DNA of 64,000 nucleotides from Acidobacteriaceae bacterium (GTDB lineage: Bacteria; Acidobacteriota; Terriglobia; Terriglobales; Acidobacteriaceae). Below are positions 1 to 21,889 of this stretch, piece by piece. Location of the stretch: positions 2,658 to 66,657 of the forward strand of contig PLCS01000002.1 of assembly GCA_003134855.1 (NCBI GenBank), read 5' to 3'. The notes below the pieces were generated by a model that was not told where the DNA came from, ran no database searches, and saw only the letters and a program-made list of their open reading frames with translations. Position 1 is the stretch's first letter. Each line of letters starts with the position of its first letter. Position numbers and translations under genes: made by a program.

Positions 1-1405
1 AATGCTGCAGATCGAGTCTCGATCCTGCGTCGACCACCACATAATCGAACTCCTCACACGCGACCTTTAGCAGCTTGTCGACGGCTTCATCGGAGAACTG
101 TGCGGTGGTCAATTCACTGGGCGCCGCGAGTACCGATAGCCCGGAACTATGCCTTATCAACATGGTGGAGAGAAAACTCGCGTCGAGCCGGCTGGAATTC
201 TGAAGAGCGTTCACGGTCGAGTATCGAGGCTTGATACCGAGGTTTATCGCCGCATCACCGAGCGGGAGGTTGAGATCGATCAAGAGGGTTTTCTGTCCTG
301 AATCCTGGGCCAGCGAAACAGCAAAATTGCAGGCCAGGGTAGTGACTCCGGAACCGCCTTTAGCACCGAGAAATACGAGTAACCTGCCGTCGGCCTTTTC
401 CTGTGGGCGGGTCACCGAATGAAGGGCCGATGCCCGAACCAGAGCGTCGGCCATGGCGCCGGGATAGAAGGGCAGGGTGAGAAACTCGCGAGCGCCGACA
501 CGCATGGTTCTGAGCAACAGGTCTGAATCGGCCTGCGCCGAGTAAACCATTGCGATTGCCAAGCCGCGGACGCTGATCGTTTCCACCAGATCGAGGGCGA
601 GTTTCGGATTAGTGTCCAGGTCGACGAGGACTATGTCAAAGTCGCGATTTAGAGTCCGGGGCGCATTTTCGAGATCGGAAGGATAGGACAGGAACTCCTG
701 GATTTTGCCGGCATGGCACTCTTCCAAAGCCCGTAATGCGGCGCTGCGGCGCTGCGCGTCCGGGCTGATGACCGCTATGTACAAGTCGCCTGTGCCAGGG
801 AAGAGAGGATCAGCTATGTCCGTTCCTTTGGCTTTGGTCCGACTTCTGATCATCTCCGCGCCAGGCGCTCCAATATGCGCGCCGGTCTCGGCAGCCTTTT
901 TGTCGCCGTCTCCGGGCTGCTCGTGCTCACCCGCAGCGTAGTCGGTGGAAGAGGACTCCTCGTGGATCGTAGCATCCGCATTTTTCCCGATTGTGATACG
1001 GATACCCTGCTCGGCAAGAGAAGTGTTCACCCTAACGAGTATCTCGCCGCCCAAATCGCGCTCTTCCAACAGTTGGTGAAAATGGCGGATCGCCGCCTCG
1101 TTTGGCGCGGGAGCCACGCCAAGATCGACTCCAACGAAGCTGCGCAGCACGGGCGACTCATAGAGTGCCTCCTCCACGCCGGGGTCCGAGAGATTGAACC
1201 ACTGCTGTACGAAGTAGATTCGCAGCAGGATTGGCAGGCCTACCGAAGGCTGACTGCTGCCTGCTGGTAGATCATGCGACTCCACAAGAGCCAACAACTC
1301 TTCCCATGGCACCACCTGCTCCATCCGGTCGAGAAACAGTTCCCGCTTGCTCTTTCGGGCAAATTTCTCGGAACCCTCCTGTGGCGCCAGTATTTCCTGC
1401 CGCAT
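1..1405 (-). CDS. IS5-transposase-N-terminus / receiver / CpaE(TadZ)-type P-loop ATPase fusion, 3'-truncated by the window edge
   Basis: Hand translation from ATG 1405 (GAGG upstream) is stop-free to base 2. It reads MRQEILAPQEGSEKFARKSKRELFLDRMEQVVPWEELLALVE...LLRIYFVQQWFNLSDPGVEEALYESPVLRSFVGVDLG...DATIH, then a receiver-like region (FDIVLVDLD...MRVGAREFLTLP), then a deviant Walker A (FLGAKGGSGVTT), LLIDLNLPLGD and FDYVVVDAG. In-frame internal ATG at 853. Confidence 0.85.
   Translation of the reverse strand, partial: MRQEILAPQEGSEKFARKSKRELFLDRMEQVVPWEELLALVESHDLPAGSSQPSVGLPILLRIYFVQQWFNLSDPGVEEALYESPVLRSFVGVDLGVAPAPNEAAIRHFHQLLEERDLGGEILVRVNTSLAEQGIRITIGKNADATIHEESSSTDYAAGEHEQPGDGDKKAAETGAHIGAPGAEMIRSRTKAKGTDIADPLFPGTGDLYIAVISPDAQRRSAALRALEECHAGKIQEFLSYPSDLENAPRTLNRDFDIVLVDLDTNPKLALDLVETISVRGLAIAMVYSAQADSDLLLRTMRVGAREFLTLPFYPGAMADALVRASALHSVTRPQEKADGRLLVFLGAKGGSGVTTLACNFAVSLAQDSGQKTLLIDLNLPLGDAAINLGIKPRYSTVNALQNSSRLDASFLSTMLIRHSSGLSVLAAPSELTTAQFSDEAVDKLLKVACEEFDYVVVDAGSRLDLQH
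869..1405 (-). mobile_element. IS5-family transposase N-terminal remnant forming the first ~179 codons of the fusion ORF
   Basis: IS5-type motifs KRELFL..MEQVVPW, LRIYF.QQWFNLSDP.VEEALY.S, DAT (first catalytic Asp) and AHIG. The rest of the DDE domain and terminal IRs were not seen. Confidence 0.8.
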
Positions 1406-1871
1406 CGACCTCGCCCTCTGCCAGCTATTCTATCCAAGATGGGCGTGAAACGGAGTGTCAAAATGTCATCCAGTCTGAATGAGGGCTTGATTTTGAACTG
1501 AGGGGCAGCACTGAAAGGAATTTTGGACGGACAGTAGGGGAGCTTGCGGGCAGCGAATCCTCAGGAAGAGATCCTCAATTGGACGGCGACAAGTCGTCGG
1601 CCACATGTCGCCTCCGGGACAAAGCTTGCGTTGATTTTGCAGCACTTGCGGCACCCTTCAGCTGCGCTCAGGGCAGGTGAAAAAAGTCGCGCCCTTTCAA
1701 AACTAATAAGAGAATCCTTAAGTCAAATGGATACCCATCCTGTACCATAAGGCGATTTTCACTCTTGTCCAACACAACAGGAGCCTGACTGCGGTCTGCC
1801 TCCATGCCGTCCAGTGTCAGCGAACCGGCGGGCGGTTGAGGCGCTTGGCGATTCCTTTGTTCAATCTCTCC

Positions 1872-1899
1872 TAACCGCAACCGGCGAAATGCTGTCTAA
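1872..1899 (+). promoter_or_regulatory. Candidate ECF-type promoter TAACC-N17-GTCTAA; would give a leaderless mRNA at ATG 1908
   Basis: AAC -35 core and GTCTAA -10 at ECF spacing, 8 nt before ATG 1908, which has no SD. Single occurrence. Confidence 0.35.
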
Positions 1900-2480
1900 T
1901 GGTTCGCATGGGCAAGAACGATCACGCCGCGGTCCGGGCCATTCTGGCTGGAGACAAAGAGGCCTATGGGGCGCTGGTCGTGCGCCATAGCCACAGCCTT
2001 TTTCGGGTTGCATTCCGGATCACCGGCAATGAAGCCGATGCAGAGGATGTGGTGCAGGAGGCGTTTCTGCGCGGGTATCAAAAGCTGGAGAGCTTTGAGG
2101 CCCGGTCGAGTTTTGGCACATGGATTTACCGCATCGCGGTGCGGGGCGCACTGGACAGAATCAGCCGCCGCCCGGCAGTCGATTCCAGCCGAGTGGCCGG
2201 GTCGGCCGATCCGGAGCAGGACGAGGTGCAGGTGGCGGATACCGCCGTCCGGCCTGACCGGCTGCTGCTGAGCGGCGAGATTGGAGCGCTGCTTCAAAGT
2301 GCGCTGCAACGCCTGACACCGGCGGAGCGAACGGCCTTTGTGCTGCGACACATGGAAGATTGCACCGCGGAAGAGATTGCCGCCGCGCTGGGCATCGCGC
2401 CCAATGCGGCTAAGCAGGCGGTCTTTCGCGCCGTGAAGAAACTGCGGATACGATTGGCTGCCTTGAGGGTGAAGCGATGA
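1899..2480 (+). CDS. ECF sigma-70 factor (start 1899 or 1908)
   Basis: Region 2 (AEDVVQEAFLR, SFGTWIYRIA) and region 4 (LTPAERTAFVLRHMED..AEEIAAALG..AKQAVFRA). Confidence 0.93.
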   Translation: MVRMGKNDHAAVRAILAGDKEAYGALVVRHSHSLFRVAFRITGNEADAEDVVQEAFLRGYQKLESFEARSSFGTWIYRIAVRGALDRISRRPAVDSSRVAGSADPEQDEVQVADTAVRPDRLLLSGEIGALLQSALQRLTPAERTAFVLRHMEDCTAEEIAAALGIAPNAAKQAVFRAVKKLRIRLAALRVKR

Positions 2481-3256
2481 AGCACTTGAATGAAGAGGAA
2501 ATGACCGAGCAGTACTACAAGCAGGGCAAAGCCCACGCCAGGCGACACCTTGAAGCTTGCGCGGAGTGCGCCGAGGATTTTGCGGCGTTCAAGAGCGATC
2601 TCGATGCGATGCAATCCGCAGAGCTTCCGGCCCGGGATGCCGCGTATGGCGAGCGCGTTTGGCGGTCGATTGCTCCCTGTCTGCCCGTATATGAAGCGCG
2701 CAAGCGGAGCTGGCTGCGCAGCGGCGCATGGAGAGGCCTGAGTTATGCCTCCGCCTGCGCGGTGCTGGTTGCGGGCGCATTCATTGCGGGGCGCGTGTGG
2801 GAGCACATGCAGATACGGACAACGGCAGGCGCCAATCCTACCGCGATCCCGCAAAAAGCAACGCCTCCTCAGCAACGGCTTGTCGTCGTCGTATTGAGCG
2901 ACCATCTGGAGCGCTCGGAGCGGCTGCTGGTCGAGTTGAAGCACGCCGACGCCGGCAGCGAGGAGATGGTCTCTCCGCTGCGCGACGAAGCGCGCAGTCT
3001 TCTGACGGCCAATCGCGTCTGCCGCCGGAATGCGGAGAAGAATGACGATCCGGCTCTGGCTGCGGCTCTGGCTCGCCTGGATCATCTGCTCGTCGAATTG
3101 GCCAACCACCAGGGTGGATTGAACGCCGCGGCTCTGGCTCGCCTGCAAGAGGAAATGAACTCGGACAGCTTGCTCTTTGAAGTGCGCGTCTTGCGCTCCA
3201 GGATTCCGGATCAACAGCCGGCCGCCAACAAACGGCCGATTGGAGGCACGATATGA
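2477..3256 (+). CDS. Zinc-binding (ZAS-type) transmembrane anti-sigma factor
   Basis: HLEACAEC (HxxxCxxC), one TM segment (LSYASACAVLVAGAFIAG), ATGA overlap with the sigma gene. Confidence 0.8.
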   Translation: MKHLNEEEMTEQYYKQGKAHARRHLEACAECAEDFAAFKSDLDAMQSAELPARDAAYGERVWRSIAPCLPVYEARKRSWLRSGAWRGLSYASACAVLVAGAFIAGRVWEHMQIRTTAGANPTAIPQKATPPQQRLVVVVLSDHLERSERLLVELKHADAGSEEMVSPLRDEARSLLTANRVCRRNAEKNDDPALAAALARLDHLLVELANHQGGLNAAALARLQEEMNSDSLLFEVRVLRSRIPDQQPAANKRPIGGTI

Positions 3257-5697
3257 AAATCAAAGCCATGCTATATTCCGCGCCGCTCGGCGTCTTGCTG
3301 TGCGCGCCTACCGCCGGCTTTGCGCAGTTCACACAGGGGCAGAGCTTTTCCGGGGGCATTGCGACGCCGGGAATCGATGCCGCCCTGATTGCGACCAGTT
3401 CGCCGGAAAGCATCCTCTATGCGCAGGGAGCGAGCGCCCTCAACGAAGGCCGCTGGGCGAAAGCGGAGTCGATCTTCGCGTCGGTTGCTGACCAGAAGGG
3501 CGAGCACGCCGATGGCGCTCTCTATTGGAAGGCCTATGCCGAGAACAAGCAGGGGCGCACTCAGCCCGCGCTGGATACCTGCATTGCGCTGGGCCGCGAT
3601 TATCCCAAGAGCCGCTGGATCGAGGAGTGCGGCGCTCTGGAGATCGAGATTCGCGCGAAGAGCAATCAGCCCGTCCAGCCGCACGACAACGACAGCGACG
3701 ACGTGAAGCTGCTGGCGCTCAACGACCTGCTGCGCCGCGACGAGGCCGCCGGCCTGGAGCAGATTCAGGAGATTCTGAATGGCGATTCTTCGGAAAAACT
3801 TTTAAAAGGTGTGCAGTTTCTTCTCGGGCATCATTATTCGGATGCCACCTATGCGCAGATTGTACGTATCAGCCGCGTTGAGGGAGATGTGCGGATTGAG
3901 CGGGGCCCGGAGGCGGAGCGGAGCACGGGAGCCAGCTGGGAGAAGGCCGCTCCCGGCCTGCCGCTGGAGACCGGTTTCAACCTGGTGACCGGCGCGGGGC
4001 GCGCGGTGGTCGAATTCGAAGACGCTTCGAACCTCTATCTGGCCGAGAACTCGGTGCTCGCCTTCAACGATCTGCATACCACGGAAGGCGTTCCTTACAG
4101 CGCGATGGCGCTGCTCAGCGGCACCGTCTCACTCCATCTTCGCCCCGATATCGCCGGCGAATGGTTTTATCTGAAGACCCCCACGGACACCTTCGCCGCC
4201 AAGTATCGCGACAAGGTTGACGTGCGCATCAGCAGTTATCTGGATGGAATGGCAATGACGCCGCTGCCCGGCGGTGAGCTTCATATTATCGGGTTCTCGC
4301 CGCAGGATCTGGCCATCGGCCAGACACTTTTCTTTCGCAATGGCGGCCGCGTCACAGAAGCCGTCCCCGGCGATCCCGGCGCATTTGCCGAGTGGGATCA
4401 CTGGGTGGAAAACCTCGTCAACCAGCGATCGGCGGCCATGGAAGCGATGATGAAGGCCTCGGGATTGACGCAGCCCATCCCCGGACTGGCGGAGATGGAG
4501 GGAGAGGGAAAATTCTTTGATTGCGCGCCCTATGGCACCTGCTGGGAGCCGAATGACGCCTTCGCGCGCGAGCAGGAGAGCAACCTTCAACCCGAGGCGC
4601 AGCCGCCTGCCGGTGATGCCTCCTCGCATCAGGCAACGACGACGGGGTATGACTCCGCCGCGTCCATGGAACCGCTTGGCTATTCCGAGTTCTTTCCCTG
4701 CTATCCTCTCAACTCTTCCGGATACAACTTGTATTGGGGAGACGATTCCGGCATGGTGAGGACCATCGATTATTCCGATGCGTTGAACCCATATTCTGAT
4801 GATTTGAACCCATCGTCTTTCCCATACTATTGGGCCGTCTGCCACGCTGGTGGCTGGATTCACCGGGGGCATCGTTACGTTTGGGTTGCAGGCCACAAGC
4901 GGCATCATAAGGGCGCCGGCCACTGGGTCAAGAGCGGGCACAAGACTGCCTTCGTCCCGATCCATCCCTACGATGCCAAAGGCCGGCCCCCGATCAACCG
5001 CAAGGAAAAGGTCTTTGTCGTGAACAACAGAAAAGGCTTGGCGATGGAGCGCGCAAGACTCGATCCAGCCCTCCCCGTCCAGCTGCTTGATGGGCCCCCC
5101 AAGGAGTTCAACAAGGCATTCTATCCCGCGCTCCCCCACGCGGAGGCTCCGTCGATGACCGCGCTTGCGATGAAGGATGCGCTCTTCGGGATCAATGGAG
5201 AGCATGCCAGGACGGCGGGCATCCCGCTGAGCTTCGACCATAAGTCGCAGAGCTTCACGATGGCCAGGCAGGTGATGCAGGGTGACAAGAGAGTGACCAT
5301 CGCCGTGCCAATGAACAACGGCAGTGGTAATCTCCAGTCGCGGGCTGATCACTTTAGCGGGGCCAGCGGCGGCAATCGCGGCAGCGGCTACAGCGGCGGA
5401 GATTATCGCGGCGGCTTCAACGGTGGAGAATATCGCGGCGGCGGAGGCTCGGGAGGCAGCTATCACGGTAGCGGGGCCAGCAGCGGCTCCAGTGGCGGAG
5501 GCTCGCGCGGCGGATACCATGGCGGTGGGGGCGGCAATTCCGGAGGCGGCGGATACCACGGTGGAGGCGGCAATTCCGGCGGTGGCGGCTCCAGCGGTGG
5601 CGGCTCCCATGGCGGAGGTGGCGGTGGCAGTTCCAGCGGCGGTGGTGGGAGTTCCAGCGGCGGTGGCAGTTCCAGCGGCGGCGGTGGGCACCGCTAA
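3253..5697 (+). CDS. Exported TPR/HEAT-like + FecR-like protein with Gly-rich low-complexity tail
   Basis: Signal peptide (MKIKAMLY...AGFAQ); TPR-like helices (ALYWKAYAENKQG); HEAT-like VKLLALNDLL; FecR-like IVRISRVEGDV...LETGFNLVTGAGRAVVEFEDAS; aromatic-rich segment; G/S/R/Y tail. ATGA-coupled to the upstream gene. Confidence 0.8.
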   Translation: MKIKAMLYSAPLGVLLCAPTAGFAQFTQGQSFSGGIATPGIDAALIATSSPESILYAQGASALNEGRWAKAESIFASVADQKGEHADGALYWKAYAENKQGRTQPALDTCIALGRDYPKSRWIEECGALEIEIRAKSNQPVQPHDNDSDDVKLLALNDLLRRDEAAGLEQIQEILNGDSSEKLLKGVQFLLGHHYSDATYAQIVRISRVEGDVRIERGPEAERSTGASWEKAAPGLPLETGFNLVTGAGRAVVEFEDASNLYLAENSVLAFNDLHTTEGVPYSAMALLSGTVSLHLRPDIAGEWFYLKTPTDTFAAKYRDKVDVRISSYLDGMAMTPLPGGELHIIGFSPQDLAIGQTLFFRNGGRVTEAVPGDPGAFAEWDHWVENLVNQRSAAMEAMMKASGLTQPIPGLAEMEGEGKFFDCAPYGTCWEPNDAFAREQESNLQPEAQPPAGDASSHQATTTGYDSAASMEPLGYSEFFPCYPLNSSGYNLYWGDDSGMVRTIDYSDALNPYSDDLNPSSFPYYWAVCHAGGWIHRGHRYVWVAGHKRHHKGAGHWVKSGHKTAFVPIHPYDAKGRPPINRKEKVFVVNNRKGLAMERARLDPALPVQLLDGPPKEFNKAFYPALPHAEAPSMTALAMKDALFGINGEHARTAGIPLSFDHKSQSFTMARQVMQGDKRVTIAVPMNNGSGNLQSRADHFSGASGGNRGSGYSGGDYRGGFNGGEYRGGGGSGGSYHGSGASSGSSGGGSRGGYHGGGGGNSGGGGYHGGGGNSGGGGSSGGGSHGGGGGGSSSGGGGSSSGGGSSSGGGGHR
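5341..5694 (+). repeat. Gly-rich coding repeats (GGYHGGGG(G)NSGGG x2, SSGGG x4, YRGG x2)
   Basis: Repeats ggcggatacca(t/c)gg...ggcggcaattccgg and (agt)tccagcggcgg(t/c)gg are visible in the DNA. Confidence 0.85.
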
Positions 5698-8040: not shown

Positions 8041-8287
8041 TGAGTTTCTCCTGTGCCGGTGATTCCGGCGAAGTTGGGTTTGGGTCCGGCCGCCTGTGCG
8101 TTCGGGCATTGCAGAGCAGGCATTCAGCCTCGCGGGCGGCAGGAACTGCGATCAATCCCATGGTAGCAGAGGCGCGCAGGGGAAACAGTGCGAGCAAACA
8201 CAGGCGGCCCGCGGCGCTTCGTCCGCCCGATTCAGGATGCGCGCATTCCGATGTGGGGCAAGCGGTTTCTCTGCGTTGCGAGGTCCA

Positions 8288-9802
8288 ATGTGGAATAATC
8301 TGCCGGTGAACCTTCACGCCGCTTCCAGTCACGATCTCTTCCTTGTCGCCTGCGTCGCCGGGACGGTTCTGCTGCTTCTGATCCTGATCGCCAAGGTACG
8401 GCTGCATCCGGCGCTGGCTCTGACGGTGGCCGCGCTCACGCTCGGCGTCGCTTCAGGCATGCCGCTGGTCCAGGTTCCGCTCTCCTTCACCGCCGGCGTG
8501 GGCAATCTGATGGGGCACATCGCCATCATTCTGGGCCTGGGCGCGGTGCTGGGCCGCCTGCTGGCCTCCTCCGGCGGCGCAACCGCGCTGGGCCGGGCTT
8601 TGGTAGACAATTGTGGAGCCAGAGGCCTGCCCTGGGCGCTGCTCGGCCTGGGAATTCTGGTGGGAATGCCGGTCTTCTTCGAGGTCGGCCTGGTGCTGAT
8701 GCTGCCCATCGTGGCCGCCGCCGCCCAGCGCAGCGGCCGCCCGCCGATTCTGGTGGGAATGCCGTTGCTGGCGGGGCTTTCCATCGTGCATGGCGTGCTG
8801 CCGCCGCATCCGGCGGCGATGCTGGCGGTTACGCAGTACCACGCCGACCTGGGGCGCACCATGCTGTGGGGGTTGGCCGCCGGAGTGCCCGCCGCCGCGC
8901 TGGCCGGCCCGGGTCTGGGCTGGTTTCTGATGCGCCGCTGGGAGAGGCGGAAGGCGAAAGGCGCGCCGGCCTCCGGCGAAGAGGAGCCGCCGCTCTTTGC
9001 CCCGACGCCGACGGAAGATCGGCAGATGGACGATCGTGCGGAAGGTGCCGAAGACTCCCGGGTGCCCCAGGTCCCGATTCTGGGACCTGGGAATCCATCC
9101 TCCAGTTTTGAAGTTGTGCCCAAGCCTGCCAGCCCCATGCGCGCCGCCTCTGCCATCCTGCTGCCGGTGGCGCTGATCTTCCTGGGAAGTTGGGCTGACG
9201 CGCTGGCCGTGCCGGGAGGCGCTGCGAACCAGATTCTGCACTTCATCGGCAGCGCGGATGTTGCGCTCCTGATCGCCGTGCTGGTGGCGCTGGTCACGCT
9301 CGGGAGACACGTTCAGACCGGCCAGCATCATGGCCGCGAACTGTTGCGCAAATTGACCGGAGAAGCCTTTGAACCTATCGCCGGCGTGCTGGTGATTCTG
9401 GCCGCCGCCGGTGGCCTGAGCGGCATTCTGCGCGACTCCGGCGCGGCACAAGCCACGGTAGGTTTGGCTCTGGGCGCGCATATGCCGCCGCTGGTGCTGG
9501 CCTGGATGCTGGCCGCTGTGGTCCGCGTCTCGGTTGGCTCGGCGACGGTGGCGACGGCCGTTGCCTCGGGAATCCTGGCCCCGGTCGCCCTCCACTTCGG
9601 CGTGCGCCCCGAGCTGCTGGTGCTGGCCACCGGCACCGGCTCGCTGATCCTCTCCCACGTGAACGACCCCGGCTTCTGGCTGATCCAGTCCTTCTTCAAG
9701 CTGGAGCTGAAGGAGACGCTCTCCACCTGGACGGTGCTGGAGACGGTGCTCTCGGTGGCCGGGCTGGGCATGACGCTGCTGCTGGCGATGGCGCTGCGGT
9801 AA
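8288..9802 (+). CDS. GntP-family (gluconate/acid sugar) permease
   Basis: LHPALAL, IILGLGAVLGRLL..SGGA, PVFFEVG, HGVLPPHP, GSATVA, SHVNDPGFWL. Start moved to ATG 8288 (AGGT upstream). Confidence 0.9.
   Translation: MWNNLPVNLHAASSHDLFLVACVAGTVLLLLILIAKVRLHPALALTVAALTLGVASGMPLVQVPLSFTAGVGNLMGHIAIILGLGAVLGRLLASSGGATALGRALVDNCGARGLPWALLGLGILVGMPVFFEVGLVLMLPIVAAAAQRSGRPPILVGMPLLAGLSIVHGVLPPHPAAMLAVTQYHADLGRTMLWGLAAGVPAAALAGPGLGWFLMRRWERRKAKGAPASGEEEPPLFAPTPTEDRQMDDRAEGAEDSRVPQVPILGPGNPSSSFEVVPKPASPMRAASAILLPVALIFLGSWADALAVPGGAANQILHFIGSADVALLIAVLVALVTLGRHVQTGQHHGRELLRKLTGEAFEPIAGVLVILAAAGGLSGILRDSGAAQATVGLALGAHMPPLVLAWMLAAVVRVSVGSATVATAVASGILAPVALHFGVRPELLVLATGTGSLILSHVNDPGFWLIQSFFKLELKETLSTWTVLETVLSVAGLGMTLLLAMALR
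9061..9091 (+). repeat. REP-like hairpin inside the GntP CDS
   Basis: GGTGC-CCCAGGTCCC-GATTCT-GGGACCTGGG, perfect 10-bp stem with the same GTGC-CCC...GGG layout as the intergenic copies. Confidence 0.75.
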
Positions 9803-9884: not shown

Positions 9885-10379
9885 ATGGATGAGCAAAGAA
9901 AGATGGTGATACATTTCCTGGCGGCACTGGCCTACCGGACACAGAAGGCGCTGCGCGATGCGCCGCCGGAGTTTGCGGAATTTCGCATTGCGCCGTTGGT
10001 GCGCACGCCGCATGAGTTGATTCGCCACATGGATGGCGTGCTGGGGTCGGCGCGCAGCTATTTCACTGGGGAACCTTACAGCGTGCCGTACTTTACTGAA
10101 TTCGCCGATGCAGTGGCGCACTTTCACGAGACGCTGGCGGATTTGGCGCGTCATCTGGAGATCGGCACAGAGTTGCGAGAGATCACTCTGGAAAGAGTCT
10201 TGCAGGGTCCATGCTGCGATGCGCTGAGCCACGCCGGGCAGATCGCGATGCTGCGGCGGCTGGCGGGTTCACCTGTTCCGCCGGAGAACTTCATCTTCGC
10301 CGCAGTTAGTTCAGACAATCTTGGCCCGGAGCAGCCGCTTCCGGTTAGGCCCGATAAGGACTGGCCGGAAAGGGCGTGA
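9885..10379 (+). CDS. DinB/YfiT-like four-helix protein
   Basis: RTPHELIRHM...DALSHAGQIAMLRRLAGSP.PPENF; SD AGGGAG. Confidence 0.7.
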   Translation: MDEQRKMVIHFLAALAYRTQKALRDAPPEFAEFRIAPLVRTPHELIRHMDGVLGSARSYFTGEPYSVPYFTEFADAVAHFHETLADLARHLEIGTELREITLERVLQGPCCDALSHAGQIAMLRRLAGSPVPPENFIFAAVSSDNLGPEQPLPVRPDKDWPERA

Positions 10380-10404
10380 AGGCTGGTCCTTTGCCCCCAG
10401 TTTC

Positions 10405-12039
10405 TTACTTCGGCAACTGGGTTGCATCCCATCCGCCGCCGAGGGCGCGGACTAATCCTACGCTGGAGACGAACTGGCGGGTTTGGAGATCGACCGCGGC
10501 GCGCTGGTTCTGGAGCAGAGCGGCTTCCGCGGTGAGGACTTCAAGGTAACTTGTGACGCCGCCCTGGTAGCGCTGGCTGGAGAGATCGCGGGAGTGCTGG
10601 GCCGAGGCGACGGCCTTCTGCTCAACGGCTGACTCCGCCTCAAGAATTCTCAGGCCGGAGAGCTGGTCTTCGACGTCGTTGAAGGCGGCGAGAACCACGC
10701 TGCGGTAGCCCGCGGCCTGGGCTTCGTAGCTGTGGCGGGCCTGGTTGGTGAGGGCGTGACGCCGGCCGGCGTCGAAGAGCAGCTCCGTGGCTTGCGCTCC
10801 CAGGCTCCATAGCGCGCTCGGGCCTTGAATCCAGGTACCGACGCTCATGCTCTCAAAGCCGCCTGTGCCATTCAGAGTGATGGTGGGATAGAAGGCGCTC
10901 GTGGCAATGCCGATCTGGACGTTGGCGGCGGCGGCGCGGCGCTCGGCGGCGGCGATGTCGGGACGGCGTTCGAGCAGTTGCGAAGGCACGCCAACAGGAA
11001 CCTTGGGCAGAGGCAGGTCGAGCGGCGAAAACGGAATACTGAAGGCGGAAAGATTGAGGTTGGCGATGGTCCCGATGGCGTGCTCGTACTGGGCGCGGGC
11101 CACGCCAAGATCGACCAGTTGCGCGCGCACGGTTTCCAGTTGCGTGCGGGCCTGGGCAACGTCCACTTCGGTGCCGATGCCGCCGGCAAGACGGCGCTGG
11201 GTGAGGTCGAGCTGATCCTGGAGGTCGGCGATGGTGACGGCGAGCAGCCTGGTCTGGGCGTCGAGGCCGCGCAGTTGCAGGTAGTCGGCGGCCAGCTCGG
11301 CATGAAGGCTGAGGTCAATGTTCTCGTTGTCGGCGGCGCTGGCCTGAGCACTGGAACGGGCGGCTTCGACGGTGCGGCGGATGCGGCCCCAGAAGTCCGG
11401 CTCCCAACTGGCCTGACCGGAGAGCGAAAAGTCGTTGTACGTCGTAGGCTTGCCGGGCGCGTAGGAGGGTCCGTTTTGCGAGACGTTGTTGCGCGAGAGA
11501 GAAGGCCCCGCCGATAGCGTGGGATAGAGCGCGGCGCGGGCTACCGTGATCTGATCGCGGGCGGCGAGGTAGGTTTCCAGCGCCTGGCGCAGGGTCTGGT
11601 TGTTGGCTTCGATGCGCTCTTCGAGCTGGTTGAGCTGCGGATCCTGGTAGATCTCCCACCATTTGCCGCGGAGCAGGCCGTCGGAGGGCGAGGCGGGCTG
11701 CCAAGCGCCTCCGGCTGGGGCGGGCGGCGGCGTGACCGTGGATGCGCCGGTCTCTTTGTAGGCCGGCGGGGCGTCGTAGGCGGGGCGGTTGTAGTTGGGG
11801 CCTACGGGCTTGCAGGCGGTGAGGATAGTGAGGGCGAAGAGGCCGACGAAAAGAGGGCGGGTCGAGGTTCGTGGTTTCCCACCCTTTCGCCAGAAGAAAG
11901 GCGAAAGGATGGGGCACGGGGCTTTTGTTTGGCGGTTTCGCAAAAAACAAAAGCAGGTCCTTCGACTTCGCTGCGCTCCGCTCAGGATGACAGTGTATGG
12001 TGACGCAATCCTTTGGGGCCGGATCGAAGGCATGATCAT
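10405..12039 (-). CDS. NodT/TolC-family outer-membrane efflux lipoprotein with a repeat-derived N-terminal extension
   Basis: Lipobox LTAC, WWEIYQDPQLNQL, SWEPDFWGRIRR, PSQLLERRPDIAAAER, LVRALGGGW. ATGA overlap with the MFP gene. Confidence 0.92.
   Translation of the reverse strand: MIMPSIRPQRIASPYTVILSGAQRSRRTCFCFLRNRQTKAPCPILSPFFWRKGGKPRTSTRPLFVGLFALTILTACKPVGPNYNRPAYDAPPAYKETGASTVTPPPAPAGGAWQPASPSDGLLRGKWWEIYQDPQLNQLEERIEANNQTLRQALETYLAARDQITVARAALYPTLSAGPSLSRNNVSQNGPSYAPGKPTTYNDFSLSGQASWEPDFWGRIRRTVEAARSSAQASAADNENIDLSLHAELAADYLQLRGLDAQTRLLAVTIADLQDQLDLTQRRLAGGIGTEVDVAQARTQLETVRAQLVDLGVARAQYEHAIGTIANLNLSAFSIPFSPLDLPLPKVPVGVPSQLLERRPDIAAAERRAAAANVQIGIATSAFYPTITLNGTGGFESMSVGTWIQGPSALWSLGAQATELLFDAGRRHALTNQARHSYEAQAAGYRSVVLAAFNDVEDQLSGLRILEAESAVEQKAVASAQHSRDLSSQRYQGGVTSYLEVLTAEAALLQNQRAAVDLQTRQFVSSVGLVRALGGGWDATQLPK
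11878..11917 (-). repeat. REP-like hairpin inside the OMF CDS
   Basis: Minus strand GTGC-CCCATCCTTTCGCC-TTTCTTCT-GGCGAAAGGGTGGG. Confidence 0.8.
11953..11992 (-). repeat. Second palindromic repeat type inside the OMF CDS
   Basis: Minus strand TGTCATCCTGAGCGGAGCGCAGCGAAGTCGAAGGACCTGC; recognised as a widespread intergenic palindromic repeat. A degenerate relative lies at 1655-1678. Confidence 0.7.
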
Positions 12040-13247
12040 TTGCCTCCCGCGTTGGTTTGGCCGGCAGGGCTCACCACCCGAATCGTTTCGCCTTCGATGA
12101 GGGAGTCGGGCGGGTCCTGGATCACCTGGTCGGCGGGGCCGAGGCCGGTGACGATCTGCACGTTGGCTCCGTCATCCTCGCCGATGACCACGGGAATCAG
12201 GTGGGCGACGCTGCCGTTGACCACGCCCACGCGCAGCCCCTCCTTGCGGAAGATGAGCGCGGCGGCGGGCACGATGAAGGTGGGGCCGGCGGGCGGCGTT
12301 TTGAAGTGGACCTGGGTGAGCGAGCCGGGCAGCAGTTCACCGGCGCTGTTGTTGACGTCGATCTCCACGAGGAGGGTGCGGCTGGCCGGGTCGATGGCGT
12401 CGGCGGTGCGGACCAGCGTGCCCTGGTAGATTTTTCCGGGGTGCTCGGCGAAGGTGAGGTCGATGGTTGAGCCGCGCTTGACGTTCGCGGAAAAGGCCTG
12501 CGGCAGATTGGCGTAAACGCGCAGGGTCTGGATGGCCTGGAGGCGAAAGAGTTCCTTGCCCGCGCCGGGGTCGATGAGCTGGCCAGTATCGACGTTGCGG
12601 GCGGTAACGACACCGTCGAAGGGGGCGTAGACCTTCTCGAAGGATTGCAGTTCGCGGAGGCGCTCGACGTTGGCCTGCGCGGATTTGACGGCTGCCGCGG
12701 TGGCCGCGGCCTGGTTGACGAAGGTGTCGGTGTCCTGGCGGGAGACGGCGTTGGAGGCGACGAGGCCGGTATAGCGCTCGGCCTGGATGCGGGCGTTGTT
12801 GGCGTTGGCCTGAGCGGTATTCAGGTCGGCCTGGGCCTGGGCTAGTTGCTGATCCACTTCGGGGGTGGCGATCTCGGCCAGCAGATCGCCCTTCTTCACA
12901 CGCGCGCCGATGTCCGAGGTCCAGCGGGTGAGGTAGCCGGAGGTTCGGGCGTAGATGGGCGAATCGGTGTAGGCGGTCACGTTGCCGGGCAGCACAAAGC
13001 TCGACAACGGTGCGCCGGCTTTGGGGGTGGCAACGATGACCGTGGGAGCAGCCAGCTCGCTGGTGGTATTGGCCAGCACTTTATCGGCATGATGGCGGCG
13101 CAGAATGCCGTAACCGGCCAGAGCGCCCGCAACGAGGACGACGATAGCCACGGCCACGAGAGCCTTGCGTGGCGAGATGGCCGCTTGCTCGGGCGCGGAT
13201 TCGTGGTCGAAATTCGGCTGCTGGTTCGGATTGTGTTCGTTGCTCAT
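12036..13247 (-). CDS. RND periplasmic adaptor (membrane fusion protein)
   Basis: N-terminal TM, IYARTSGYL...DIGARVKKGDLLAEI, APFDGVVTARNVD.G, SRTLLVEI. Confidence 0.93.
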   Translation of the reverse strand: MSNEHNPNQQPNFDHESAPEQAAISPRKALVAVAIVVLVAGALAGYGILRRHHADKVLANTTSELAAPTVIVATPKAGAPLSSFVLPGNVTAYTDSPIYARTSGYLTRWTSDIGARVKKGDLLAEIATPEVDQQLAQAQADLNTAQANANNARIQAERYTGLVASNAVSRQDTDTFVNQAAATAAAVKSAQANVERLRELQSFEKVYAPFDGVVTARNVDTGQLIDPGAGKELFRLQAIQTLRVYANLPQAFSANVKRGSTIDLTFAEHPGKIYQGTLVRTADAIDPASRTLLVEIDVNNSAGELLPGSLTQVHFKTPPAGPTFIVPAAALIFRKEGLRVGVVNGSVAHLIPVVIGEDDGANVQIVTGLGPADQVIQDPPDSLIEGETIRVVSPAGQTNAGGK

Positions 13248-13253
13248 GAAAAA

Positions 13254-16200
13254 CTACTCCGATACTTCGTCAAACTCGTCCGTTGTTCCGGCCATCTGAA
13301 TGCCGGTAGCTGTTTGCCGGCGGCCTTCCAGCCAGCCGTGAACCAAAGAGAAAAATGCGGGCACAAAGAAGAGCGTAGCGACGGTGGCCACCAGCAGCCC
13401 GCCAATCACGGCGCGGCCCAGCGGGGCGTTCTGCTCGCCGCCGTCGCCCAGGCCCAGTGCCATCGGCGCCATGCCGAGAATCATCGCCAGCGCGGTCATC
13501 AACACCGGGCGCAGGCGGACAAAGCCGGCGCTGAGCGCGGCGCGGCGGGCGTCGCCCACCAGAATTTCTAACTGCTCGCGGGCAAAGCTGACGACAAGAA
13601 TCGAGTTCGCCGTGGCCACGCCCATACACATGATGGCGCCGGTGAGCGCCGGCACGCTGAGGCGCGTATTGGTGAGAAAGAGGAACCAGACGATGCCGGC
13701 CAAAGCCGCCGGCAGCGCCGCGATGATGATGAAGGGATCAAGCCAGGACTGGAAATTGACAACGATGAGCAGGTAAACCAGCAGGATGGAAAACGCCAGG
13801 CCGCCGAGCAGGCCGATGTAGGACTTCTTCATCGTCTCGCTCTGGCCGCGCAGGTCAAAGTGCGAGCCGCGGGGCAGATCGCCGTTCTTCTCGTGGAGGG
13901 CGATTTTTTCTTCGACGGCGCGGGTAACGGTTCCCAGGTCGGTTCCATCGACGTTGGCAAAGATGTCGAGGACCGGCTGAATATCATAGTGGCTCACCGT
14001 GCCCATCTCGGAGCCTGGCGTGATGGAGGCCAGGCTGCCCAGCACTTGAACCGGGGGCTGCGCGCCGGGCGCTCCGGCAGCAGCCGAGGAGCCGCTGGCC
14101 AGCCGGGCGGCAGAGTTGCCGGGGACGGGCAGGCTCTGTAGCGCGGCCAGCGAGTTGACGCCATACTGCGGTGCCTGGATCGCCACGTTGTAGGTGACGC
14201 CGTTCTTGGGATCGAGGAAGAAGCTGGGGCTGGTCTGGAAGCTGCCGCTCAGGGCCAGCAGCAGACTGGTCGCCACGTCCTTCTGCGTCAGGCCGATGGA
14301 CTGGGCGCGGGTGCGGTCCACGTCCACCGTCAACTTGGGAAGGTCGAAGGGCTGCTGAATACGCACGTCGGCTGCGCCCGGAATGTGGCGGACCTCGTCG
14401 GCCATGCGTTCGGCCAGGGCGCGGTTGCCGTTGAGATTCGGGCCGACAATCTGGAGGTCGATGGGCGCGGAGAGGCCGAAGTTGAGAATCTGGGTCACGA
14501 TGTCCACTGGCAGCACGTAAAAAGTGACGCCGGGATACTGGCGGGCGAGCACGCCGCGCAAATGCTCAACGTACGCCGCCGTCGGATGGTGCTCCCTGGT
14601 CAACTGCACCTGGATGTCGGCGTCGGCCGGGCCGATGGGCGCGGAGGTCGAGTAAGAGAGGTTGAGTCCGGAATTGGGCAGGCCGATGTTATCGACGATG
14701 GAGACGACCTCGCTTGCGGGAACATTTTGCCGGATGGTCGAGTCGATGTGGTCGCAGAGAGCAGCCGTCTCCTCGATGCGCGTGCCGGTGCGGGCGCGGA
14801 CGTGAATCTTGAACTGACCGGAGTCCACCGAGGGGAAGAAGTCCTGGCCCAGAAATGGCGCAAGTCCCAACGAGCCGACAGCGAAGAGCAGGAAGAGAAT
14901 CAGAAAGACCGCCGCGTTGTCCACGCACAAAGTGAGCAGGCGCAGATAGCCGTGGCGGAAATTCTCAAAGCCGGCCTCAAAACCCTGTTGAAAGCGGATG
15001 AAAGGGTTGCGGCTGTTGCGCTTCCTTTCGGTCTCCGCATCGTCGTGCTCCTTGAGCAGGTACTTGGCCATGGTGGGCACCAGCGTGCGGGAGAGAAAGT
15101 AGCTGGCCAGCATGGCGAAGACCACCGCCTCGGCCATGGGCACGAAGAGGTACCTGGCCACGCCGCTCAAAAAGAACATGGGCACGAAGACGATGCAGAT
15201 GGCGAGAGTGGAGACCAGGGCCGGGACGGCGATCTGCGCCGAGCCGTCGAGGATGGATTGCTCCAGCTCCTTGCTGCCTTCCAGATTGCGGTTGATGTTT
15301 TCGATGGCGACGGTGGCGTCATCGACGAGGATGCCGACGGCTAGCGCAAAGCCGCCCAGGGTCATGATATTGATGGTCTCGTGCAGCATCGCGAGGATGC
15401 TGAGCGAGCAGAGAATGGAGAGCGGAATGGAGACCGCGATGATGACCGTGGAGCGCCAACTGCCCAGGAAGACCAGGATCATGATGGCGGTGAGGCAGGC
15501 GGCGATGACGGCCTCGCTGACCACGCCGTCGATGGCTCCACGCACGAAGATCGACTGGTCGGAGAGAGTATTGATCTGTAACTGCGGCGGCAACTGGCCT
15601 TTGATGAACTCCAGCTTGGCGCGAACGCCGCTGATGATGTCCAGCGTAGAGGCCGAACCGATCTTCATCACGCTCATCAGAATGGCGCGGCTGCCGTCCA
15701 CGCGCACAATGTTGGTCTGGGGAGGATTGCCATCGCGCACGTGGGCCACGTCGCGGATATAGAGGACCGCGCCGTTGACCGCCTTGATGGGCAGGTTGTT
15801 CAGCTCATCGATGATTTGCGGGGATGAGTTGGTTTCGATCGCGTACTCGAAGCGGTCGATCTTCATGGTGCCGGAGGGCGCGATAATATTCTGCGCGGAG
15901 ATGGCGTTGACTACATCGACCGGTGAAAGCCCCTTGGCCTGCAAGGCCGGCAGGTCCAGGTCCACCTGCACCTGGCGCTGCTTGCCGCCATAGGGAAAGG
16001 GCGTGAATGCGCCCTCGATGGTGGCCAACTGGACGCGGATATTGTTTGTGGCCTGATCGAACAACTGCTGTTCATCGAGGCCCTGGCCGGAGAGTCCCAA
16101 TTGCAGGATAGGTACGCTGGAGGCGTTGTACTGGATAATGAAGGGCGGCGTGGTGCCCGGCGGCAGGGCGCGCAGCATCACCTGGTTGACGGCAGTCACC

Positions 16201-16523
16201 TGGGCCACGGCGTTGCCGATATCCACGTGCGGCTGAAAGAAGATCTTGATGAGGCCGGTGCTGTTGAGCGATTGCGACTCGATATGCTCGATGTCGTTGA
16301 CCGTGGAGGTCATCACGCGCTCGCTGGGAGTCACGATGCGGCTGGCCATCTCCTGCGCCGAGAGGCCAGTGTAGCCCCAGATCACCGTCACCACGGGAAT
16401 GTCGATGTTGGGAAAGATGTCCGTAGGCATCGTCTCGATGCTGAAGACGCCGAGAATCAGAACCAAGAGCGCAAAGACGACGAATGTATAAGGCCGCCGC
16501 AGCGCAAGCCGGACAATCCACAT
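13254..16523 (-). CDS. RND efflux permease (AcrB/AcrD/AcrF superfamily)
   Basis: 1089 aa; GILVDDATVAIENI (TM4 DD), ANSILVVSFA, RLRPVLMTALAMILGM.PMAL. Confidence 0.95.
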   Translation of the reverse strand: MWIVRLALRRPYTFVVFALLVLILGVFSIETMPTDIFPNIDIPVVTVIWGYTGLSAQEMASRIVTPSERVMTSTVNDIEHIESQSLNSTGLIKIFFQPHVDIGNAVAQVTAVNQVMLRALPPGTTPPFIIQYNASSVPILQLGLSGQGLDEQQLFDQATNNIRVQLATIEGAFTPFPYGGKQRQVQVDLDLPALQAKGLSPVDVVNAISAQNIIAPSGTMKIDRFEYAIETNSSPQIIDELNNLPIKAVNGAVLYIRDVAHVRDGNPPQTNIVRVDGSRAILMSVMKIGSASTLDIISGVRAKLEFIKGQLPPQLQINTLSDQSIFVRGAIDGVVSEAVIAACLTAIMILVFLGSWRSTVIIAVSIPLSILCSLSILAMLHETINIMTLGGFALAVGILVDDATVAIENINRNLEGSKELEQSILDGSAQIAVPALVSTLAICIVFVPMFFLSGVARYLFVPMAEAVVFAMLASYFLSRTLVPTMAKYLLKEHDDAETERKRNSRNPFIRFQQGFEAGFENFRHGYLRLLTLCVDNAAVFLILFLLFAVGSLGLAPFLGQDFFPSVDSGQFKIHVRARTGTRIEETAALCDHIDSTIRQNVPASEVVSIVDNIGLPNSGLNLSYSTSAPIGPADADIQVQLTREHHPTAAYVEHLRGVLARQYPGVTFYVLPVDIVTQILNFGLSAPIDLQIVGPNLNGNRALAERMADEVRHIPGAADVRIQQPFDLPKLTVDVDRTRAQSIGLTQKDVATSLLLALSGSFQTSPSFFLDPKNGVTYNVAIQAPQYGVNSLAALQSLPVPGNSAARLASGSSAAAGAPGAQPPVQVLGSLASITPGSEMGTVSHYDIQPVLDIFANVDGTDLGTVTRAVEEKIALHEKNGDLPRGSHFDLRGQSETMKKSYIGLLGGLAFSILLVYLLIVVNFQSWLDPFIIIAALPAALAGIVWFLFLTNTRLSVPALTGAIMCMGVATANSILVVSFAREQLEILVGDARRAALSAGFVRLRPVLMTALAMILGMAPMALGLGDGGEQNAPLGRAVIGGLLVATVATLFFVPAFFSLVHGWLEGRRQTATGIQMAGTTDEFDEVSE

Positions 16524-16577
16524 AAGGCAGGTTCTCGCTCCTGGGCCGGGCTGCTCGCGACCGGAACGGCTCGACTA

Positions 16578-16688
16578 CAGTAATTTCAGGGTTGCTGTAA
16601 TTGAGCCGATGACCTCAAGTGGATTTTTCCTCAAGAAAAAGCCACCTTCGAGAATCTTCGCTACGCTACATTAACCCTGAAATTACTC
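16578..16688. mobile_element. Candidate 111-bp MITE with 15-bp terminal inverted repeats and TA flanks
   Basis: AGTAATTTCAGGGTT (16579-93) and AACCCTGAAATTACT (16673-87) are perfect reverse complements; TA at 16576-77 and 16689-90. Confidence 0.5.
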
Positions 16689-21885: not shown

Positions 21886-21889
21886 AAAG

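Follow-up and report, generated by a model that had tools for sequence, protein, structure and literature searches.

Proteins of the TadZ/CpaE type, represented by TadZ of Aggregatibacter, CpaE of Caulobacter and the Eubacterium rectale protein 3FKQ, are built of two domains, first an atypical receiver and then an ATPase of the MinD/ParA type, the Walker A motif of which has the signature lysine without the P-loop lysine. The protein described here has the same core and the same type of Walker A motif, but is extended at its N-terminus by a domain of transposase origin (about 150 aa) and a tether, and its gene falls into a separate clade of tandem orphan paralogues (A and B) with no tad genes within 10 kb. 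MinD differs from it in having the canonical deviant Walker A motif GKGGxGK[ST], where the present protein has AKGGSGVTT; furthermore, the protein scores far below the cut-off of the NCBIfam MinD models (77 vs 213 bits), and neither minC nor minE was found near the gene in the flanks of the relatives examined. A likeness to type Ia ParA, which we take to be one of working principle only, lies in the addition, in front of a ParA/MinD ATPase, of a helical domain with DNA-binding ancestors, and in a cognate site within its own promoter (here in some lineages). In contrast to type Ia ParA, a receiver domain is intercalated here and the Walker A motif is of the TadZ type; homology of the N-terminal domains is not claimed, and no ParB-like partner or centromere was seen.

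On the transposase side, the closest comparison is with IS5-group elements from peat and soil (e.g., L095 and L117), which encode transposases of 318–322 aa with DUF772 and DDE_Tnp_1 domains and have the inverted repeat (IR) TAGGGAATCTCTGCACAAG. Residues 1–183 of the fusion are colinear with residues 1–187 of the transposase, and the start codon, the ribosome-binding site (RBS) region and a -10-like box are held in common, a relic of the left IR (IRL) being present in some relatives of the fusion. Unlike these elements, the fusion has no DDE catalytic domain and no right IR (none is possible, since the frame runs on into the ATPase), and occurs as a single syntenic copy; its transposase-derived domain is acidic, with transposase-invariant residues replaced.

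Host proteins derived from transposases include the eukaryotic SETMAR, CENP-B and THAP/POGZ-type DNA-binding-domain fusions and the prokaryotic TnpB-derived TldR and Cas12. The fusion followed the same route, the DNA-binding/end-recognition module being kept, catalysis lost, and the locus immobile, orthologous and under purifying selection, but its source is a bacterial DDE element of the IS5 family and its recipient a cytoskeletal/positioning-type ATPase. Eukaryotes offer many clear examples of domesticated DDE transposases, whereas in bacteria, to our knowledge, such examples are rare and have been poorly documented. No description of an IS5-domain/TadZ-CpaE fusion was found in the searchable literature, within the limits of which the present one is a rare and so far undescribed instance of a bacterial host protein that has recycled a transposase.

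Results

The window, by which we mean the whole 64 kb stretch of DNA analysed, begins inside a minus-strand open reading frame (1..1405, (-)) encoding an IS5 N-terminal domain, a linker, an atypical receiver and a MinD/ParA-type ATPase, which is cut by the left window edge so that 468 of its approximately 590 codons are visible. Translation of the minus strand over positions 1–1540 gives a stop, 8 codons, the ATG at 1405–1403 and then 468 stop-free codons up to the edge, the two other minus-strand frames being full of stops, which confirms what the preliminary description of this DNA had reported, namely a single stop-free frame joining part of an IS5 transposase to a CpaE/TadZ-like ATPase. 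Full-length relatives of the protein are 589–590 aa long (86–92% identity), and the composition of the transposase-derived part is uniform with that of the host gene.

The alignment of a full-length real IS5 transposase (319 aa; DUF772 and DDE_Tnp_1) starts at residue 1 and pairs its residues 1–187 with residues 1–183 of the window protein at 53% identity (up to about 60% to transposase fragments), ending at '..AHIG' near residue 183, in keeping with the end of similarity proposed earlier. In the profile scan suggested for this part, it is matched both by NCBIfam NF033581 (IS5 transposase; aa 24–155 against profile positions 1–132 of 285, E 2e-24) and by Pfam DUF772 (PF05598, InsH-type; aa 52–119, positions 1049–1252, E 3e-12). 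The drift from TIVDATII to KNADATIH had also been read correctly, the consensus of real transposases being TGTIVDATII and the window sequence IGKNADATIH, as had the absence of the remainder of the DDE domain: the window frame has no PF01609 match, whereas its real relatives have DDE_Tnp_1 at aa 139–307, and all that remains is the first strand ('DATI') and a decayed stub up to 'AHIG'.

Residues 14–150 of this region (956..1366, (-)) make up a conserved folded domain, hereafter the N domain, modelled as seven helices and a beta hairpin with an AlphaFold pLDDT of about 88–92 over aa 20–140. It is as highly conserved as the receiver domain, with a hydrophobic core and surface arginines that are invariant among the fusions, and the basic N-terminal arm (R17, K18, R21) and R62, R88 and R110 are conserved and common to fusions and real transposases. 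Residues invariant in real IS5 transposases have been lost in the K-A-G-N-G-R loop and at T104/T105, H111 and I142/V143, and the net charge has moved from about 0 in the transposases to about −8 in the fusion, i.e., the domain has turned acidic. A sequence search of the PDB with the N domain found nothing, a fold search with its model gave no match with E <0.8 and only winged-helix-like matches at noise level, and no homologue of known function, structural or sequence, was found for it besides transposases.

The N domain is followed by a disordered linker (785..955, (-); aa 151–207) with a pLDDT of about 25, which is what is left of the initial part of the DDE catalytic domain. The transposase motif 'SSTKN..RDPEMHQ..KAHIG' has decayed into 'SSTDY..EHEQPG..GAHIG' in the window, the segment carries indels among relatives, and two of these (P0065 and P0088) have longer relics, aligning up to transposase residues of about 216–246. 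The short charged linker that had been noticed is thus present, but it is not new sequence: the transposase alignment and the longer relics identify it as the decayed start of the DDE domain.

The atypical receiver (REC-like) domain (401..784, (-); aa 208–335) has an alternating beta/alpha fold in the model, 'TLPF' in place of the K-P of phosphorylatable receivers, and a weak match to Pfam Response_reg (aa 252–321); it also matches the solved CpaE receiver (PDB 4dn6/4dad, E 1e-6). The MinD/ParA-type ATPase domain (2..400, (-); aa 336–468), which continues past the window edge, matches Pfam AAA_31/MinD-like ATPases from aa 342 (E 2e-10) and PDB 3ea0 (sequence E 4e-23; Foldseek E 9e-14), and the sole two-domain match among the PDB matches listed is 3fkq (388 columns, E 5e-9). 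The matches to 4dn6, 3ea0 and 3fkq bear out the earlier assignment to receiver-domain ATPases of the CpaE/TadZ type. In the Walker A motif AKGGSGVTT (338–364), present in 81 of 111 family members, the signature lysine is kept and the P-loop Lys is replaced by Val. The C-terminal tail of the family (..EKKKGFSFFR, with KKKGFSFFR) is conserved among relatives and, by eye, resembles what we take to be a MinD-type C-terminal tail, which in MinD itself is an amphipathic sequence that targets the membrane.

The ATG start codon (1403..1405, (-)) is inherited from the IS5 transposase gene, MRQ..LA.. being the transposase N-terminus; real IS loci read ...GAGGCGAAGGCG ATG CGG CAG CAG and the window reads ...GAGGGCGAGGTCG ATG CGG CAG GAA. 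Upstream of it lies an IS-derived leader (1406..1480, (-)) with a conserved SD-like GAGGG (1414–1418), 8 nt from the ATG, a -10-like TAGAAT (1427–1432), which was called only from conservation and from colinearity with IS left ends, and a strongly degraded IRL relic (~1465–1480). Among relatives of locus type I (see below), the approximately 50 nt that precede the ATG hardly vary, and real IS5 elements have left ends with which leader, SD and ATG are colinear; the alternative offered in the preliminary description, a dead IS supplying promoter and start codon, is therefore true as far as their origin is concerned. A sigma-70 promoter scan of positions 700–2000 gave nothing useful near the start. 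RNAalifold returned no consensus pairs for the conserved 150-nt leader, on which ground a riboswitch or structured leader was rejected.

The true terminal IRs of real IS5 elements were defined from 10 full elements; in real IS loci they were missed by a seed-based inverted-repeat search and recovered by fuzzy matching. The corresponding IRL relic, approximately 70 nt upstream of the start (−67 to −80), has 13–14 of 20 matches in six relatives (shuffle p ≤ 0.024) and 10 of 20, which is not significant, in the window. In nine of 17 lineages, the window included, it is no better than chance, and its conservation is no greater than that of the flanking leader. Elsewhere in the 64 kb window, neither IR-like sites (≤ 3 mismatches) nor other IS5 copies were found.

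An internal ATG (Met185; 851..853, (-)) is the start of a 406-aa protein (P0057) that is marked as encoded by the window, and 853 is therefore the probable start chosen by the gene call for the source contig. Sequence comparison suggests that this codon is probably not the main start: methionine occupies the residue-185 column in only about 30% of fusion proteins (it is absent from, e.g., P0030 and P0038), and a GGAG abuts ATG 853 without a spacer, there being no properly spaced SD, whereas ATG 1405 is the transposase's own and has its conserved SD-like GAGGG. The choice between the two starts, which had been singled out for checking, falls in favour of 1405 on these grounds. Contigs derived from metatranscriptome RNA of peat and permafrost (91–95% identical) tile positions 800–1452, i.e., the junction, the N domain and the ATG; they are unstranded, assembled and from related strains and could include DNA carry-over, and their coverage ends between −47 and −70, which cannot place the TSS. 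Fusion proteins of this kind are labelled 'transposase' by NCBI and 'pilus assembly protein CpaE' by JGI; both labels, as well as the apparently truncating gene call on the source contig, are misleading.

The same intact fusion recurs in approximately 95 protein clusters (52–92% identity), all with DUF772 and AAA_31, and in 16 species-level genomes of Terracidiphilus/Acidobacteriaceae from peat, all of them MAGs, and about 180 codons are free of stops and frameshifts although the amino-acid sequences have diverged by up to about 45%. In the 16 genomes, the N domain is always covalently joined to the TadZ-like ATPase and never stands alone. Pooled pN/pS is 0.41 for the N domain (aa 14–150; p 9e-28), 0.92 for the linker (not significant, neutral), 0.34 for REC and 0.21 for the ATPase, and pairwise dN/dS in the transposase-derived fold ranges from 0.2 to 0.5. 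The fold is thus held well below 1 next to a neutral linker, and this, the recurrence among relatives and the start-codon comparison all favour the domesticated transposase domain that the preliminary description had proposed.

The gene is a member of a tandem pair of orphan TadZ-like paralogues lying outside any Tad pilus operon. No tad/cpa genes (T2SSE, T2SSF, secretin, prepilin peptidase) were found within ±10 kb in four relatives (L077, L079, L080 and L082), and the window's own upstream genes encode an ECF sigma factor, a GntP permease and RND efflux proteins, with no tad/cpa genes among them; the ancestral neighbours of the pair are IclR, an S41 peptidase and PBP1A. A homologue with 57–58% identity does lie inside a full tad operon (prepilin peptidase, CpaE, CpaF, TadB, TadC) in Acidicapsa (L070), but it belongs to a different clade. 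The earlier view of the fusion partner as a Tad-pilus component is not supported.

Two types of this locus, which is syntenic across species, are distinguished by the paralogue tree and gene order: type II, [A][Tnp-B], and type I, [Tnp-A][B with relic], the fused gene of the window being of the paralogue A type (type I). Gene 1 and gene 2 of type I and the fused genes of type II have the same native flank upstream of their IRL relic, which points to one insertion and later copying of the block. A neighbour-joining tree of N domains (long branches, no bootstrap) places the fusions of types I and II next to each other but not in one clade, so that the case for a single origin is built on the insertion flank and the derived residues that they have in common. 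In the fused gene of type I, a search for recombination breakpoints found the ATPase part to be clearly A-like and the REC part ambiguous. Every genome that retains the N domain has exactly one per gene pair, and it is always kept in the 16 species. In related lineages the domain has been lost in at least three ways: by in-frame deletion (type I gene 2, L019), by stop and frameshift decay (L080) and by complete removal (L017, L021, L026).

Discussion

The locus is immobile, orthologous and single-copy across species, it has lost its TIRs and catalysis, its frame is intact and under purifying selection, and RNA contigs (unstranded, from related strains) cover the N domain; that we are dealing with a real, translated and selected fusion, i.e., with domestication itself, appears highly probable. 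In the explanation that we favour, an element of the IS5 family would have inserted just upstream of paralogue B of a tandem CpaE/TadZ-like pair in an ancestor of the peat Terracidiphilus/Acidobacteriaceae clade, and a deletion would have brought the frame of the transposase and the ATPase gene together. The DDE region, which had carried catalysis, would then have decayed into a disordered tether, while purifying selection kept the helical N-terminal domain, in IS5-family transposases taken as the end-recognition/DNA-binding part. Transcription and translation probably proceed from a promoter region, a ribosome-binding site and an ATG (1405) that were those of the transposase. In the lineage of the window, the block as a whole, from the native flank and the IS left end to the N domain and the linker, would later have been copied from B onto paralogue A, after which copy B would have lost the folded domain by in-frame deletion, resulting in one N domain per gene pair.

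By the mechanism proposed, the folded domain on its flexible tether of 55–130 aa may provide an extra anchoring or recognition surface for one subunit of the pair, which probably forms a dimer, because A/D ATPases work as sandwich dimers, with membrane or DNA as the matrix (PMC11407121). We tentatively prefer to see the N domain as a retargeted nucleic-acid anchor, a role in protein–protein docking being nearly as likely. In weighing this mechanism, the conserved basic arm and arginines, the conserved KKKGFSFFR tail and the dimers that A/D ATPases form on membrane or DNA were counted in its support; the lost invariant residues, the charge shift from about 0 to about −8, the IRL unmaintained in nine of 17 lineages and the lack of IR-like sites in the window were counted against retained DNA binding, and the repeated loss in related lineages against indispensability of the N domain. 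The explanation as a whole, comprising an exapted IS5 fragment, its formation history and the anchoring or recognition mechanism, we consider reasonably probable.

A dead IS might instead have given the gene its promoter, RBS and start only, with the N domain as a tolerated, functionless passenger, which would stay in frame since a stop would kill the downstream ATPase and stay foldable just so as not to misfold. Leader and ATG do derive from the IS, the B gene of L016 and L025 appears to keep an IS-like leader and start with all transposase coding sequence gone, the domain has been lost repeatedly, and candidate residues for DNA contact have disappeared along with the acidic shift. Avoidance of stops alone, however, predicts a dN/dS near 1, such as that of the linker (0.92), whereas the N domain, with its invariant core and surface arginines, is at 0.41; type I gene 2 shows how readily the domain can be deleted cleanly and in frame, yet 16 species always keep one copy per pair, and the block was copied onto paralogue A before B lost its domain. 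Such a frozen accident is in our view unlikely.

Autoregulation in the style of type Ia ParA or of IS repressors, in which the N domain binds the left IR approximately 70 nt upstream of its own start and represses or tunes the gene pair, is quite unlikely as well. Transposase fragments that act in this way are known: IS1 InsA and IS911 OrfA are IS-encoded N-terminal fragments that bind to the IRs and act as repressors of the transposase promoter. The IRL relic of six lineages lies at the expected position and exceeds the shuffled expectation, in a 150-nt leader that is conserved, but the relic is at chance level in nine of 17 lineages, the window among them, is no better conserved than the leader around it, and faces a domain in which transposase-invariant residues have changed.

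A host-encoded tamer of IS5, with the N domain competing with or poisoning related active transposases of the same peat communities and the ATPase fusion being incidental, would have targets in the related active-looking IS5 elements (transposase of 318–322 aa, intact IRs) that are abundant in peat and soil metagenomes, and precedents in inhibitory truncated transposases such as Tn5 Inh and IS1 InsA. It is nevertheless very improbable: the N domain is linked to the ATPase in all 16 genomes, it has diverged at transposase-invariant positions, and the 64 kb window contains no IS5 copy or IR-like site. Finally, translation from ATG 853, with 854–1405 an untranslated IS pseudogene open by chance, would suit the 406-aa P0057 and an in-frame join with a prior chance of 1 in 3, but it is close to refuted by about 180 codons open in 16 species and about 95 clusters despite up to about 45% amino-acid divergence, by an N domain pN/pS of 0.41, and by an unconserved Met185 without the spaced SD that is conserved at 1405.

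Returning to the preferred reading of an exapted IS5 domain, it is conceivable, albeit doubtful, that DNA binding by the N domain persists, with its specificity changed, and that on its long tether the domain makes the orphan TadZ-like pair a device for anchoring and positioning the chromosome at the membrane (or pole). If true, peat Acidobacteria would have built an A/D-ATPase system of a new kind from a transposase, with exactly one DNA-binding head per paralogue heterodimer. Related genomes show every stage of the domestication: the active IS family from which the domain came, the site of insertion together with flank and left IR, the decay of DDE into a tether, purifying selection on the fold, the passage of the module from one paralogue to the other and its independent losses. 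The fusion is a new domain architecture, an N-terminal addition to the ParA/MinD (TadZ/CpaE) family, the members of which position cellular machines, and it draws attention to two orphan TadZ-like ATPases, paired and uncharacterised, in the abundant Acidobacteria of peat.

The fusion gene and its recurrence

The gene at 1–1405 on the minus strand, which is cut by the left edge of the window, reads in the fusion frame as a stop, eight codons, an ATG at 1405–1403 and then 468 stop-free codons to that edge, while the remaining two minus-strand frames of 1–1540 contain stops throughout. Pfam matches in this ORF are DUF772 at aa 52–119 (E 3e-12), a weak receiver-domain signal and, C-terminal to it, a MinD/ParA-type AAA_31 ATPase from aa 342 onward, and the NCBIfam IS5 transposase model pairs aa 24–155 with profile positions 1–132 of 285 (E 2e-24). 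A real, full-length transposase of 319 aa with DUF772 and DDE_Tnp_1, from metagenome locus L095, aligns residue 1 to residue 1 and remains colinear as far as '..AHIG' (about aa 183), with 53% identity. The preliminary description of an IS5 transposase N-terminus joined in frame to a CpaE-type ATPase was therefore accurate, including the change of TIVDATII to KNADATIH. In AlphaFold models aa 20–149 form a confident seven-helix domain with a beta hairpin, followed by about 55 residues at pLDDT ~25, the receiver and the ATPase.

The fusion is no private accident and recurs intact in other Acidobacteria. The 468 visible residues were matched end to end, at 52–92% identity, by about 95 protein clusters of 545–667 aa, all with both PF05598 and PF13614. 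When one genome per species was scanned, 16 species-level genomes (L001–L014, L018 and L029) carried this ORF intact and in frame, all of them MAGs of Terracidiphilus/Acidobacteriaceae recovered from peat bogs, fens and related soils; near-identical copies of the window sequence are present in peat metagenomes. Homologues are named 'transposase' by NCBI but 'pilus assembly protein CpaE' by JGI. Because a 406-aa protein from the internal ATG 853 (851–853) is listed as encoded by the window itself (P0057), the gene call of the source contig probably starts there, dropping the transposase-derived domain. All three annotations are misleading.

Selection, translation start and RNA

In 89 fusion proteins the folded transposase-derived N domain (aa 14–150) is as conserved as the receiver, and the linker (aa 151–207) is variable with many indels. 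Pairwise dN/dS (Nei-Gojobori, codon alignments of 17 genes) was 0.2–0.5 for the N domain, well below 1 as the proposed domestication implied, and ~0.5–1.8 for the linker. Pooled over eight phylogenetically independent pairs, pN/pS was 0.41 for the N domain (binomial p 9e-28), 0.92 for the linker (not significant), 0.34 for the receiver (aa 208–335) and 0.21 for the ATPase (aa 336–468), the last two significant. The neutral linker serves as an internal control, so the N-domain signal is not produced by mere maintenance of an open frame.

Between the two starts previously considered, 1405 and 853, the sequence favours 1405. An SD-like GAGGG is conserved 8 nt upstream of this ATG, a -10-like TAGAAT lies at -27 to -22, and the ~50 nt upstream are near-invariant in close relatives, even where the context differs farther out. 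At ATG 853 a GGAG directly abuts the codon with zero spacer, and its methionine occurs in only ~30% of fusion proteins, being absent for example from P0030 and P0038. Window 800–1452 is tiled by peat and permafrost metatranscriptome contigs of 91–95% identity, with zero coverage at 1475–1541, which places the N-domain region in RNA along with the remainder of the gene; the contigs are unstranded and come from related strains, and the transcription start is not placeable from them. A depth spike of ~230x in RNA run X20 over the '..QQWFNLSD..' segment (1140–1206; loose ends at 1113, 1146 and 1167) most likely consists of cross-mapped transcripts of real IS5 elements or other paralogues and not of expression of the fusion gene.

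Origin and history of the module

When metagenomes were scanned with the closest real transposase fragment, 80 loci from soils and peats proved to carry an IS5-group element, which encodes transposases of 318–322 aa and has a left end (TAGGGAATCTCTGCACAAG) ~68 nt before the ATG and a matching inverted copy 93–133 nt past the transposase stop. This element, common in peat and soil metagenomes (L083–L162, e.g. L117:2431-3590 and L095:1912-3080; terminal IRs TAGGGAA(N)CTCTGC(A/G)(C/T)A), is apparently active and, among living sequences, stands closest to the domesticated domain; many of its contigs end ~60–90 nt before the ATG, which fits a repeated element. In the fused genes the leader is colinear with the IS left end as far as '...GGATA(G/A)A(A)T..GC(C)AGAGG(G)CGA(A/G)G..CG ATG CGG CAG', so that the start codon, RBS and promoter region all derive from the transposase gene. 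The left inverted repeat (IRL) persists as a relic at -67 to -80 in L003, L004, L005, L009, L010 and L014 (13–14/20 matches, shuffle p <= 0.024) and is at chance level in nine other lineages, the window included. Longer relatives align to real transposases up to residues ~216–246 ('..ADAHELPELLH..'), and on reading the sequences 'DGNQAY' in P0063 stands where real transposases have 'GDQAY', which indicates that the disordered linker is a remnant of the catalytic domain.

The tree of the receiver and ATPase core, taken with gene order, separates two locus types of the tandem paralogues A and B. In type II an unfused A precedes B fused to the transposase-derived part (L009–L014, L018, L029, L079), and in type I the fused A precedes B (the window, L001–L008, L077/78, L082). 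Type I B retains the leader that came from the IS, the initial 14 codons of the transposase (MGQEIPASQEGSEK) and 'ERDSQMQQSG', a relic of 'RDPEMHQ', the folded domain having gone by in-frame deletion. Native sequence 5' of the IRL relic (..GGATTCTGGCGTTCGCTGAAGCCAA..CAGAATCGCCCC) is common to both type I genes and the type II fused genes, and the fusions of both types have in common derived residues that are absent from real transposases. This would reflect a single insertion upstream of B, after which, in the window's lineage, A received a copy of the entire block. In the fused gene of type I loci the ATPase portion is clearly of A type and the receiver portion is ambiguous. The domain is wholly lost in L017, L021 and L026, only an IS-like leader seems to be kept in L016 and L025, and the shrunken relic of L080 contains a stop and a frameshift. 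In L019 (MFD04752 MAG) four CpaE-like genes stand in tandem (cores at 5658, 7089, 8428 and 10190), the last with the same in-frame-deleted relic as type I gene 2.

Partner and gene context

In both sequence and fold the core is similar to TadZ/CpaE (receiver against 4dn6, E 1e-6; ATPase against 3ea0, E 4e-23), 3fkq being the only two-domain match among the PDB matches listed, and its Walker A, AKGGSGVTT, is without the P-loop lysine. The Tad-pilus label given to this partner was not supported, as no tad genes were found within 10 kb in four relatives or upstream in the window, and the positive control, a homologue of 57–58% identity within a textbook tad operon (prepilin peptidase, CpaE, CpaF, TadB, TadC) of the isolate Acidicapsa dinghuensis, falls in a different clade of the family tree from the A/B pair. 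The partner is thus TadZ-like, not demonstrably a Tad pilus protein, and the fused gene belongs to an orphan CpaE-family offshoot. It is always one of a tandem paralogue pair, in the ancestral order IclR / A / B / S41 peptidase / PBP1A. The C-terminal tail, beyond the window, is a nearly invariant ..EKKKGFSFFR in fused and unfused members (e.g. P0001 aa 581–590 and the L009 and L080 genes) and by eye appears similar to the MinD membrane-targeting tail; the second paralogue of type I loci has a diverged version (..RKRNSGSAFR in L004 gene 2).

Several further features were observed in relatives. In the fusion-bearing MAG L008 a third CpaE-like gene reads as a 1182-aa ORF (9988–13536, plus strand), with receiver and ATPase followed by ~750 aa without a Pfam match, which may be further domain accretion in a family that is expanding, or an artefact of read-through in GC-rich sequence. 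At L080/L081:1078-8188, between the IclR gene and the contig start and upstream of an unfused gene pair, lies what looks like an integrated defence island (defence-type domains CTD7, MC3 and LmuB_C, an HTH_17 gene, a phage-type integrase). An EcoRV-like endonuclease and D12-class methyltransferase pair directly follows the S41 peptidase gene at L082:14722-16451, in the place of PBP1A in other genomes.

Within the window, an ECF sigma factor (1899–2480, plus) is divergent from the fusion gene and is followed by a 259-aa ORF without a Pfam match in anti-sigma-factor position (2477–3256, plus) and, in the same region (1899–5697, plus), an 814-aa protein that shows a hint of TPR and has a strikingly Gly/Ser-rich, low-complexity C-terminus (..GGGSGGSYHGSG..GGGGSSSGGG..). 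Farther on are a GntP-family permease (8096–9802), an RND efflux system (10405–16523, minus; OEP outer-membrane factor, HlyD-type adaptor, AcrB-type pump), a further HlyD-type adaptor (17168–18634, plus) and, after it, two plus-strand ORFs of >1000 aa in the region 10405–25042.

Discussion

As to the present role of the N domain, which resembles no solved structure, retargeted nucleic-acid binding is the reading we put forward tentatively. The basic N-terminal arm (R17, K18, R21) and R62, R88 and R110 are invariant or nearly so in fusions and real transposases alike, suggesting a retained binding surface. Simple retention of IR binding is argued against by the replacement in fusions of transposase-invariant residues (the KAGNGR loop, T104/T105, H111, I142/V143), a net charge that has gone from ~0 to ~-8, an unmaintained IRL relic and the absence of IR-like sites within the window. 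Protein docking is a possibility we regard as only slightly less probable, and it is unlikely that the domain, conserved as it is, is a passenger without function of its own; the remaining probability is shared among other rival readings. One of these, autoregulation at the gene's own IRL-derived operator, by analogy with type Ia ParA or IS-encoded repressors, is in keeping with some lineages but does not fit the window.

Full-text searches of the literature found no description of a DUF772-CpaE/TadZ fusion or of any bacterial domestication of IS5 domains. The fusion is real, recurrent and selected, by all indirect signs it is translated, and it brings together two kinds already known, transposase domestication and an ATPase of the TadZ/CpaE family. 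ParA/MinD-family ATPases act as sandwich dimers whose matrix is a membrane or DNA (PMC11407121), and every genome retaining the N domain has exactly one per gene pair; in the mechanism we prefer, one subunit of an A/B dimer would bear the domain as a tethered head for anchoring or recognition.
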